Positions 404 to 21,369 of a stretch of DNA of 62,796 nt are shown piece after piece (the stretch's first letter is position 1; each line of letters starts with the position of its first letter). The DNA comes from an uncultured Bacilli bacterium. Lineage in GTDB: Bacteria; Bacillota_I; Bacilli_A; RF39; UBA660. Both the position numbers and the translations under genes were made by a program. The stretch is taken from the NCBI GenBank assembly GCA_944331715.1, contig CALVIP010000003.1:1-62796 (forward strand), given 5' to 3'. Below the pieces are notes generated by a model. The model worked only from the letters and a program-made list of their open reading frames with translations, was not told the origin of the DNA and searched no databases.

Positions 404-1285
404 TTATTTATTCTTTTCCATCATTTTCTTAGCCATTTTTAAGATAAATTTATTAGTTGCAGGTACTTTTTCTCTGTCTTTCTTATAACCTAGTGTTTTT
501 AGAGAACTATCACTAGAATCAACACACAAATCTACTCCAGAGATAAAACTAGCCATGCTGGATCCTAAAAATACAATAGGTCCTGCCATTTCCTCACTAG
601 TAGCAAGACGATGAGCGACTCCTGTTTCAGCAAGTAGAGCTTCTTCTCCACCAGCCATCTTTTCAAATTCATCTTTCATGCCTGTATCAGTAGAGCCTGG
701 CATTACATTATTAACTCTAATACCTTGTTTACCTAGTTTAACTGATGCTTCACATGCATACTCTGATAAACATCTTTTAGAATACATATAGGCAAAAGTT
801 GAAGGAGATATTTTTGCAAGAGGTTCTACTACCCTCTCTACTTCTTCCCAAGTACCTGCATTTACTACTTTACTTTGCTCTTTTCTAAACTCTTTCCAAT
901 TAAGACCTGCAGTACTAGTTACATAGACAATACTGTCACCCTTACTCATTCTCTTAGTTAAATACTCTTCTGTAATATAGAAGTTTGCAGTATAATTACA
1001 ATTAAAAGTTGTCATATAATCTGTTTTAGAACCTGATAATCCTGCTACTCCAAAAAAACAGTCAATATGTTCAGGAAGTTTACTAAATAAGTTATCTATT
1101 TCTTCTTTTTTAGACAAATCACACTTTATAAACTCAGTTATTCCCTTAACATCACAAGGATTTAAGTCAACTGCATAACATCTAGCTCCTAAATCAACTA
1201 ACATTTCTACTGTTGCCTTACCCATACCGCTACTAGCTCCTGTTACTACACAAACTTTATCCTTATAACCAAAATAATCTTTCAT
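404..1285 (-). CDS. SDR family oxidoreductase (3-alpha-HSDH/carbonyl reductase-like)
   Basis: TGASSGMG Rossmann motif, YMYSK catalytic YxxxK, NNVMPG motif. Confidence 0.9.
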   Translation of the reverse strand: MKDYFGYKDKVCVVTGASSGMGKATVEMLVDLGARCYAVDLNPCDVKGITEFIKCDLSKKEEIDNLFSKLPEHIDCFFGVAGLSGSKTDYMTTFNCNYTANFYITEEYLTKRMSKGDSIVYVTSTAGLNWKEFRKEQSKVVNAGTWEEVERVVEPLAKISPSTFAYMYSKRCLSEYACEASVKLGKQGIRVNNVMPGSTDTGMKDEFEKMAGGEEALLAETGVAHRLATSEEMAGPIVFLGSSMASFISGVDLCVDSSDSSLKTLGYKKDREKVPATNKFILKMAKKMMEKNK

Positions 1286-1374
1286 ATAAATCCTACCTTT
1301 CTAACTAAAGTATAGATAGACAAAAGAAAAAAGTAAATAATTTATTAAAAATTAGATACTTTTTTACAGTATAT

Positions 1375-1529
1375 ATGATTTTCTAGTAGAATAATTTATT
1401 ACTCGCGGGCCATCTACAAGCGAGATAATCTGCAGTGTAGAATAATTTATTACTCGCATCCATCTACAAGCGAGAACATCTCCGTAAAAAGAAAATCATC
1501 TTACATATATTATATGAAGTTTCCCTCAT
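1375..1529 (-). ncRNA. Array C: two pseudoknot repeats (orphan type III antitoxin-like RNA) with leader hairpin and closing stem
   Basis: Repeats at 1386-1425 and 1437-1475; minus strand CUCGC-UU-GUAGA-UGG(AU/CCC)-GCGAG-UAAUAAAUUAU-UCUAC; 10-bp inverted repeat 1375-1384/1490-1499; leader AUGAGG-GAAA-CUUCAU at 1514-1529. Confidence 0.65.
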
Positions 1530-1542
1530 CTAATACGTTTTA

Positions 1543-1572
1543 ATCATATCATAAATGGTACTAGTATGTAAA
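1543..1572 (-). promoter_or_regulatory. sigma-A-type promoter of array C
   Basis: TTTACA-18 nt-TATGAT with extended TG. Confidence 0.65.
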
Positions 1573-1587
1573 GATATTTTTTTATTT

Positions 1588-1764
1588 TCATTTTTTACTT
1601 TTTTTAAACTTATTTTTTGTTTTTTTAGGTTTCTCTTCATCAAAATCAATAATACCTTCCCATTCAAAAGGTTTAAGTCCTTTAACAGCTTCACCTGCAG
1701 AAATTATTGGACGCTTTTGTTGAAAAAAGCCTTCAGGAAACTTTGTTATGTTTTTCTTTGCCAT
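1588..1764 (-). CDS. 58-aa basic small protein (candidate antitoxin), below ORF-track cutoff
   Basis: MAKKNITKFPEGFFQQKRPIISAGEAVKGLKPFEWEGIIDFDEEKPKKTKNKFKKSKK; RBS GGGAGGG; own promoter TTGACT-17-TAATAT at 1802-1830. Confidence 0.7.
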   Translation of the reverse strand: MAKKNITKFPEGFFQQKRPIISAGEAVKGLKPFEWEGIIDFDEEKPKKTKNKFKKSKK

Positions 1765-1859
1765 ATAACATTCCCTCCCATATAGAATTTAATACAATTA
1801 TATATTATCATTAATGTAACAAGCAGTCAATATTTTTAAATACCATTAACAAAATTAAA

Positions 1860-2267
1860 TTATAAATTTGTAATAGTATCTTTATTTTTATTTTCAACAT
1901 TTAAACTTATAACTAATTTTATTAACTTATCTAACATATCATCACTTAAACGACCAATTACTTTATATTCTATTTTATCTTTCTTAAAGTAGAATAAATC
2001 GTCTGCCCTAATATAACCAGTTTTGTTGTTAACATTTCTACCTTTAATTTTATTAGGTACTATCTCTAGATTACTTTTAATTTTTAACTTTCTTTTCTTA
2101 TGGTTTTCACTATGAAAACTACACATAATATTAGAAATGAAATCATATGAGTAACTCTCTATTATCCCTGCCTCATCACTGATTACCACAAAAGAGTGTT
2201 TAGGAACAACAGTGCCATTCCTATCTTTAAATTCCTTAACAACAATTATGTCTCCAACTCTACACAT
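1860..2267 (-). CDS. PemK/MazF-fold-like protein (candidate toxin)
   Basis: Likely start MCRVGDIIVV (RBS AAGGAGG); GDI..V, HSFVVIS and GYIRADDL pattern resemble MazF/Kid fold; palindrome ACACAAG/CTTGTGT upstream at 2293-2314. Confidence 0.5.
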   Translation of the reverse strand: MCRVGDIIVVKEFKDRNGTVVPKHSFVVISDEAGIIESYSYDFISNIMCSFHSENHKKRKLKIKSNLEIVPNKIKGRNVNNKTGYIRADDLFYFKKDKIEYKVIGRLSDDMLDKLIKLVISLNVENKNKDTITNL

Positions 2268-2363
2268 AGATACCCTCCTTTCTTTAATATTCACACAAGA
2301 AGAAATACTTGTGTCTACTATATAATTAACGATATCTTTATTTTTGCTCTTTTAATTCAACAC

Positions 2364-2397
2364 AAAAAAACTAGAGTTTTTCCTCTAGTCTCTTTTC
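2364..2397 (-). terminator. Intrinsic terminator after pheT
   Basis: ACTAGAG...CTCTAGT hairpin with T-tract on minus strand. Confidence 0.7.
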
Positions 2398-6461: not shown

Positions 6462-6670
6462 AATAAAAAATAACTATAACTTAAGGGTGTTAAACTAACA
6501 CTGTACCACCTTAATTTATAGTTATTGTAACTATCTCATTAATCTTAACGCGAATTAACGCCTACAATTTTGTTATAGGAACTCTTAAGACGAATTCATA
6601 AACTATTCTTATCTATTTCCACCTACCATAGACTCTCTAAAAAAGAAATCATTTACTACTACTTCTTAAT
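6462..6670 (-). promoter_or_regulatory. T-box riboswitch (Phe)
   Basis: AGAGAG..GGUGGAAA stem I motifs, GAA-UUC specifier (UUC at 6592-6594), AAGGUGGUACAG T-box at 6501-6512, terminator with U-tract; upstream of HAD-pheS-pheT. Confidence 0.85.
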
Positions 6671-6727
6671 CACAGTCATTTCAAAAATTACTATACCATA
6701 TTTAAAAGTTAATTGTAAATAGAAAAT

Positions 6728-20899: not shown

Positions 20900-21108
20900 T
20901 TTGCAACAGTATAAACATATGATATACTTTAAATGCAGTAAATGAGTGACATCTCATATAAAGATAAAAGAGGTTCACACTACTCCTTTAAAAAGTGTAT
21001 ATAAAGAGGTTGACGTTACTCCTAAAAAACGTATAAAGGTTCACACTATTCCTATAAAAGTGCATAAAAGTATAAGGGCGATACCTCTATTGGTATTACC
21101 CTATTTTT
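20900..21108 (+). ncRNA. Array A: promoter, leader, three degenerate ToxI-like pseudoknot repeats and terminator; no toxin gene follows
   Basis: TTTGCA-17-TATACT; leader ATGAGTGACATCTCAT (20942-20957); repeats 20964-21000, 21001-21032, 21033-21063; terminator 21075-21108. Confidence 0.7.
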
Positions 21109-21150: not shown

Positions 21151-21369
21151 TTTACAACAATATAATCTTATGATATACTTTAGATGTATTAAATGAGTGA
21201 TACCTCATATAATAACAAAAGTCGGAATTCCCTTGCCACAGTAGGGAGCTAACAAAAGTCGGAATTCCCTTGCCATAGTAGGGAGCTAACAAAAGTCGGA
21301 ATTCCCTTGCCACAGTAGGGAGCTAAAAAACATGGGCGATTTTCATTTAGAAAGTCGTCCTTTTCTTTT
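21151..21369 (+). ncRNA. toxI: Array B: ToxI/AbiQ-type antitoxin RNA, 3 x 37-nt repeats, with promoter, leader and terminator
   Basis: TTTACA-17-TATACT; leader ATGAGTGATACCTCAT (21193-21208); AACAAAAGTCGGAATTCCCTTGCCA(C/T)AGTAGGGAGCT at 21214, 21251, 21288; terminator 21334-21369; toxN directly downstream. Confidence 0.9.

Follow-up and report, generated by a model that had tools for sequence, protein, structure and literature searches.

The locus described here raises the question of what holds a small MazF-like protein in check. Three elements follow one another on the minus strand of a 62,796-nt stretch of DNA from an uncultured Bacilli bacterium (the whole stretch is hereafter the window): a 135-aa ORF, a 58-aa ORF and a repeat array, termed array C. 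A first-pass annotation read them either as a toxin-first type II pair or as a new type III family whose RNA antitoxin lies downstream of the toxin, possibly with protein and RNA antidotes together. Our analysis assigns a probability of about 0.78 to a two-gene type II (protein-protein) toxin–antitoxin (TA) module composed of the 135-aa and 58-aa genes, with array C as a separate, orphan CptI array. The pair is most likely an ordinary protein-protein TA system of a family not yet catalogued.

Coordinates of the locus are collected in Table 1. Array C (1481..1386) falls beyond the span of 1588–2314 that the first-pass annotation had given to the three-part unit. The hairpin behind pheT was reported on the plus strand by the scan, and the T-run on the minus strand was read directly from the sequence; this hairpin is kept in sister genomes. 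The 135-aa ORF runs from an ATG at 2267 to a stop at 1862–1860, is preceded by the ribosome-binding site AGGAGG and begins MCRVGD. An alternative GTG start would give a protein of 144 aa, yet all homologues in an alignment of 28 sequences begin MC(K/R)xGD.

Table 1 Features of the cassette and its surroundings, in the order in which the minus strand is read, with the distant T-box leader last.
Feature	Position	Strand	Basis or remark
pheT end	2414	-	first in 5'->3' minus-strand reading
Terminator-like hairpin with T-run, closing the pheST operon	2370..2389	-	just upstream of cassette
Palindrome ACACAAG-N8-CTTGTGT, 7-bp arms, candidate operator	2293..2314	.	between terminator and toxin RBS
135-aa putative toxin, predicted MazF/PemK fold, putative endoribonuclease	1860..2267	-	AF2, Foldseek, PF02452 in homologues, phrog_21589
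Spacer between 135-aa and 58-aa ORFs, 95 nt	1765-1859	-	sequence
Sigma-70-type promoter TTGACT-17-(TG)TAATAT, inside spacer, 5' of the 58-aa gene	1802..1830	-	promoter scan
58-aa partner, putative antitoxin, RBS GGGAGG	1588..1764	-	conserved motif, adjacency, co-variation
Promoter-like TTTACA-18-(TG)TATGAT of the CptI-type module, outside cassette	1543..1572	-	promoter scan
Array C, two 50/51-nt CptI-type repeats, putative orphan type III antitoxin array, outside cassette	1386..1481	-	repeat scan
AT-rich inverted repeat with T-runs on its flanks, terminator-like end of CptI module	1327..1365	.	sequence
Short-chain dehydrogenase (SDR-family) gene, after array C	1285..404	-	annotated
T-box leader RF00230, 109.7 bits, upstream of pheS	6480-6682	-	Rfam

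The 135-aa protein had been described as MazF-fold-like, and structure prediction bears this out. An AF2 model built from the 28-sequence alignment reached a pLDDT of 91.8 and a pTM of 0.85. When this model was compared with the PDB by Foldseek, the best 50 matches listed were type II toxins of the MazF/PemK type (MazF, EndoA/YdcE, MoxT and similar) together with a single CptN, with TM-scores of 0.5–0.63 on the query and 0.6–0.73 on the target. The protein is thus predicted to have the MazF/PemK fold, the SH3-like barrel of MazF, Kid and CcdB. Sequence comparison is consistent with this assignment at the level of the family. The window protein itself has no Pfam match at E ≤ 1 and reaches no NCBIfam or PADLOC model, while 25 of 51 divergent homologues, scanned singly, match PF02452 (PemK_toxin) at E ≤ 1, the best at 2.5e-6. 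It matches phrog_21589, a family with no assigned function, at 8.7e-33, and shows a weak match to a PHROG labelled ‘MazF-like’ (8.3e-4). Sequence and profile searches of PDB chains with the toxin family returned no MazF, which was found by the fold search alone. It is a compact family, with 79 close relatives and, among 1.8 billion representative sequences, 225 clusters at 50% identity.

Whether the MazF-like gene and the small ORF behind it belong together can be read from their distribution. We fetched 80 genomic loci and ran an HMM built from the small protein over every ORF in them. A partner homologue lies adjacent to the toxin gene and on the same strand in 75 of these loci, and is present in every one of the 13 viral contigs that carry the toxin. 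The five partnerless loci comprise two contigs that stop ~130–150 nt past the toxin gene, two loci with a fragmentary toxin and one in which an IS has inserted directly behind the toxin. Both gene orders occur: the toxin precedes its partner in ~46 loci, mostly with gaps of 60–125 nt, and follows it in ~29 loci with gaps of 0–17 nt. On the toxin tree gene order requires just 2 changes, compared with 25.7 when labels are shuffled. Pairwise identities of toxins and partners are correlated (r = 0.73 over 81 pairs), whereas the maximum over 500 permutations was 0.11. One metagenomic protein of 196 aa (P0088) joins partner and toxin in a single frame as a natural fusion; it may be a real fusion or the product of a lost stop codon. 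The flanking genes of the cassette vary between genomes, and the copies borne by phages adjoin lysis genes, a position that fits a putative role in addiction or abortive infection. Comparison of the loci therefore establishes, at the level of gene content, a mobile two-gene cassette made up of a protein of predicted MazF fold and a co-evolving small protein. The proposal of a toxin-first type II pair is supported by a partner that is conserved in both gene orders, co-varies with the toxin and is fused to it in one natural protein.

Two loci depart from the simple two-gene layout. In L053 (2632–3657) a single toxin gene is flanked by partner genes on either side, and in L105 (1473–3263) the toxin gene is present in two divergent copies, one with and one without a partner.

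The residues that are nearly invariant in the toxin family are G5, D6, H24, F26, S50, F94, G105 and N134, with H24 and S50 conserved at 90% or above. In an hhalign comparison with B. subtilis MazF (the reference is identical to PDB 4me7_A), H24 stands opposite the catalytic R25, and S50 adjoins the position of T48 in a stretch where the alignment is gapped. Neither the canonical catalytic Arg (R25 of the B. subtilis protein, R29 of the E. coli one) nor the Thr (T48/T52) is present in the 135-aa protein. Other marks of MazEF/PemIK toxins are kept: an N-terminal strand with GD(I/V) and, where the active site lies, a strand of the form (R/H)-P/S-hydrophobic. Because the hhalign match is weak (E = 0.068), we treat H24 and S50 as a candidate active site that would replace Arg and Thr with plausible chemistry. 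RNase activity is not assured since the canonical catalytic Arg is missing, and we describe the protein as a probable divergent, sequence-specific endoribonuclease of the MazF/PemK fold.

The missing Arg leaves room for a different reading of the same conserved pair, in which the MazF-fold protein is no RNase toxin and acts as a CcdB-like gyrase poison or a non-toxic nucleic-acid binder, with the small protein as its cofactor or regulator. Proteins with the CcdB/MazF fold do not all have the same activity, and the replacement of the catalytic Arg by His, together with the failure of the window protein to reach any curated toxin model, would be in keeping with such a role. Yet His and Ser/Thr can serve in general acid-base catalysis, and Kid employs a His. 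The best structural matches are MazF RNases and not CcdB. The cassette further displays traits typical of TA systems, among them mobility between contexts, presence in phages by lysis genes, both gene orders, degraded or IS-hit copies and an extra promoter for the second gene. We consider a non-RNase function unlikely on these grounds, and retain a toxin that cuts RNA as the preferred reading.

The partner is short and distinctive. Its conserved motif, KFPxGFF..RP..EALKD.xPxxW, is followed by a Lys-rich tail, and its best-kept residues are P32 (99%) and W35 (94%). In the first three loci inspected a 50–58-aa ORF with M.KK..KFPxGFF..RP......W lies downstream of the toxin gene, and in a prophage locus an 86-aa ORF sharing the same core sits upstream of it. 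Ten diverse partners gave no match in Pfam, NCBIfam, PADLOC or PHROG, and these family searches detected no AbrB/MazE, RHH, HTH, Phd or other DNA-binding domain in them. MazE has a Trp in its toxin-binding C-terminal tail, which the conserved Trp of the partner resembles. We modelled with AF2 an in-frame read-through version of the cassette at locus L055, in which the stop codon was read as Gly. In this model (overall pTM 0.78) the N-terminal 30 residues of the partner reach pLDDT 82–93 almost without regular secondary structure, and the linker has a pLDDT of 46. Such values are compatible with an extended partner peptide docked on the toxin, the docking being read from the confidence values because the fusion model yields no contact map. 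The 58-aa protein would then be a new, short and largely extended antitoxin without a recognisable DNA-binding domain, which neutralises the toxin through binding.

The roles within the pair could in principle be exchanged, the 58-aa ORF encoding a small basic peptide with toxic or effector activity and the MazF-fold protein serving as its neutraliser or processing enzyme. The Lys-rich tail and the strong promoter that the 58-aa gene has to itself would suit this assignment. The 58-aa protein, on the other hand, has no hydrophobic segment of the type typical of small membrane toxins, and in all solved structures among the matches listed the MazF fold belongs to a toxin. The member of a TA pair that is expressed separately and more strongly is normally the labile antitoxin. 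One example is mqsRA, in which mqsA has constitutive promoters of its own (PMC6918082). We regard the exchange as very improbable and continue to take the 135-aa protein as the putative toxin and the 58-aa protein as the putative antitoxin.

The locus had been described as three separately promoted units, and this stands for two of them. The 58-aa gene has a near-consensus site of its own in the spacer, TTGACT-17-TG-TAATAT, and a promoter-like site precedes array C (TTTACA-18-(TG)TATGAT, 1572..1543). The 135-aa gene has no consensus promoter that the scan could detect. Single matches are of little weight in such AT-rich DNA: the scan gave 6 promoter matches against 8.0±2.8 in shuffled sequence, which is not above chance. 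The site in the window spacer (1830..1802) is meaningful solely because comparable sites recur across the family. Sigma-70-type sites are found in 39 of 43 toxin-first spacers, as against 14.0±3.0 (maximum 24) in 200 mononucleotide shuffles, and many of these spacers hold a perfect TTGACA-17-TGnTATAAT.

Upstream of the 135-aa ORF the palindrome noted in the first-pass annotation is present at 2293–2314. It is kept in all close, nearly identical relatives, two of which have 6-bp arms, and was not found in the distant loci. Because it is not conserved beyond the close clade, comparison lends no support to an operator role, and the palindrome may be regarded as a candidate operator at most. The cassette stands directly behind the terminator of pheST, an operon under T-box control. 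Read-through from pheST could, speculatively, couple transcription or dosage of the toxin to the charging of Phe-tRNA.

Array C has the hallmarks of a CptI antitoxin RNA, a family characterised from the CptIN system of Eubacterium rectale (Rao et al. 2015, PMC4627078; PDB 4RMO) whose features include an H-type pseudoknot. Like that system, array C alone among the elements of this locus has two repeats of ~45–50 nt with H-type pseudoknot potential, the stem being CTCGC/GCGAG and the loop GTAGA pairing with a downstream TCTAC. Its module is laid out as promoter, repeats and terminator. Rfam returned nothing relevant for array or cassette, either for the whole window at the gathering threshold or for positions 1250–2420 at E ≤ 10. 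At high stringency array C is unique in its own assembly, and a DNA search over 200 genera of the host's family recovered two-repeat arrays 70–76% identical to it in about a dozen other genera. A gene of ~160 aa lies within about 100 nt downstream of the array in twelve of the homologous loci, and its product in one of them (L115) matches CptN (PDB 4RMO) at E = 2.5e-19. The MazF-like gene or its partner is present in none of the 24 other array loci.

The same genome also holds a complete CptIN system, on contig 19 (locus L132, with cptN on the minus strand at C19:3554-4012). There a TTGACA promoter and a leader hairpin come first, then two repeats of ~49 nt that are homologous to those of array C, a terminator and cptN. 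The pseudoknot pairing of loop and tail is compensated between the two arrays, reading GUAGA/UCUAC in array C and CUGGA/UCCAG on contig 19. A two-sided change of this kind is as expected for the H-type pseudoknot of CptI (PMC4627078). No cptN gene lies directly downstream of array C, where the SDR gene is found instead. Array C is therefore an orphan, followed by SDR in the window and by obg in one sister genome.

We aligned the array C region in six sister genomes, which with the window makes seven genomes of the genus. In six of the seven the array lies on the same strand as the toxin gene and within ~1 kb of it. Three genomes have two array units, one has two hairpins and a deletion, two have a single unit and one has none. 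In four of the six sister genomes a further gene stands between the cassette and the array promoter. It encodes an Asp/Glu racemase of 237–238 aa (PF01177, 1.1e-38) whose ATG overlaps the stop of the small ORF (ATGA). The window retains ATGAAAA of this gene, and the sister genome without an array retains ~45 nt; to judge from the alignment, both remnants look like deletions. Array C would accordingly be an immediate neighbour of the 58-aa gene in the window following loss of the racemase gene.

These observations bear on the suggestion of a new type III or mixed system whose toxin is the MazF-fold protein and whose antidote is array C RNA, either alone or together with the 58-aa protein. Two points speak in its favour. 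CptN, a type III toxin, has the same fold (rank 26 among the Foldseek matches, TMq 0.57), and an array accompanies the toxin gene at close range in nearly all genomes of the genus, six of seven. The latter co-occurrence reflects shared synteny rather than independent association. The racemase gene intervenes in four of the sister genomes, and one of the six has the cassette but no array. Direct repeats near the cassette were sought by an exact-seed scan with control windows, TRF having missed array C and its copies in relatives. The scan detected such repeats in the 400 nt behind the cassette at 2 of 74 family loci, compared with 2 of 717 control windows. Of these two loci, one has the same syntenic array C and the other is beside an IS. 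Type III loci place a tandem array immediately upstream of the toxin gene, with a terminator between them, and array C lies downstream of the 135-aa gene and beyond the 58-aa gene. In other genera the homologous arrays precede cptN and accompany neither a MazF-like gene nor a partner, and the genome of the window already has a CptIN system complete with a homologous array. We therefore find a type III or mixed role scarcely credible. Neither the idea of a new type III family with its RNA antidote downstream of the toxin nor that of dual protein and RNA antidotes is upheld. On sequence evidence, array C is a CptI-type array unrelated to the MazF-like cassette and adjacent to it by chance.

We also asked whether array C might serve the SDR gene as leader or operator, perhaps in the manner of a small pseudoknot riboswitch. 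This was dropped, as homologous arrays precede cptN elsewhere and obg replaces SDR behind the same module in one sister genome.

Repeats of other kinds were seen near individual cassettes. At L082 (3433–3612) the toxin gene has no partner. Behind it a 58-nt unit that contains a terminator-like hairpin is repeated in tandem (2.5 copies, 98% identity), and next comes an IS that carries genes for an HTH protein and a transposase. This repeat has no obvious likeness to array C and looks IS-associated. At L003 (3742–3900) five direct repeats with the 16-nt core TTATTCCTTTGAAAAA and variable spacers of ~17 nt are found ~80 nt beyond the cassette, ahead of a gene with an FtsK/SpoIIIE domain. Judged by their arrangement, the L003 repeats look like iterons, that is protein-binding sites, and not like a type III array. 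A ~120-nt GC-rich and apparently structured segment stands in AT-rich DNA downstream of the cassette at L001 (3880–4000).

For the cassette itself we propose the following mechanism. The 135-aa toxin would cut RNA. The 58-aa antitoxin would wrap onto it through its KFPxGFF and PxxW segments and, once bound, block the groove in which the toxin binds its RNA substrate. Antitoxin would be kept in excess by its own strong promoter in the ~95-nt spacer. The toxin would be in low supply, its transcription depending on a weak promoter or on read-through of the pheT terminator. If the antitoxin were lost or degraded, the toxin would be freed.

The closest known counterparts are MazEF/PemIK systems (Kis-Kid, EndoAI-EndoA). 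These share the toxin fold and have a small protein partner adjacent on the same strand; members of the present family give weak but repeated matches to PF02452. Differences are found in each component. The window toxin fits no curated model and has His24 and Ser50 in place of the catalytic Arg and Thr. The partner has no match to a Pfam domain, AbrB/MazE and RHH included, and falls in no family described so far. In the clade of the window the toxin gene comes first, separated from its partner by a ~95-nt spacer with a promoter. The type II norm is an antitoxin whose N-terminal DNA-binding domain autoregulates the operon, and a partner without such a domain is unusual for type II.

In gene order the cassette resembles the toxin-first type II systems mqsRA, higBA, hicAB and rnlAB. 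The resemblance to mqsRA extends to promoters: as reported in PMC6918082, the second gene of that operon, the antitoxin gene mqsA, has constitutive promoters of its own, which uncouple antitoxin from toxin. In mqsRA, however, these promoters lie inside the toxin gene, and here the promoter occupies the spacer between the two genes. MqsA acts as a repressor that binds DNA, whereas no DNA-binding domain is detectable in the window partner, and both the toxin fold and the antitoxin of mqsRA and the other toxin-first systems are unrelated to those of the window pair. As for CptIN, homologous arrays elsewhere precede cptN and array C is followed by the SDR-family dehydrogenase gene; the 135-aa protein is no sequence-level homologue of CptN and has a protein partner of its own.

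A more specific version of the type II reading can be put forward tentatively. The cassette would be a minimal type II module, made up of a MazF-fold RNase with a His/Ser active site and an extended antitoxin of ~50 aa without a DNA-binding domain, in which the ratio of the two proteins is set by promoter architecture and not by autoregulation. We think this version possible but rather doubtful. If it is true, placing the antitoxin first would provide tight coupling, and placing it second would call for a dedicated strong promoter.

What is new here is an unmodelled PemK-like subfamily and a new, very small antitoxin, the kind of TA system itself being well known. The analysis adds an uncatalogued TA family of 225 clusters, hosted by gut Bacilli from the ‘Tenericutes-like’ group of small-genome MAGs, by Clostridia and by phages of both. 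Neither component is recognised by the current models of Pfam, NCBIfam and PADLOC, and as a result the toxin is annotated as hypothetical and the antitoxin is left uncalled. Because the adjacent repeats form an orphan CptI array, the locus provides no evidence for a ‘reversed’ type III system or a dual antidote. The family does provide a clean natural experiment on the reversal of TA gene order, in which the switch to toxin-first is accompanied by a ~100-nt spacer with a near-consensus promoter.

Some further features of the window lie apart from the cassette. An open-ended ORF on the plus strand ends within positions 1–246 and contains …HWSVENKLHFHLDFTFREDA…; it has no Pfam match at E ≤ 1 and resembles the C-terminus of an IS transposase (ISAs1/IS4-like). 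Two tandem arrays lie close together further along, one of 2.7 copies of a 36-nt unit at 20967–21059 and the other of 3.2 copies of a 37-nt unit, with 96% identity, at 21213–21330.
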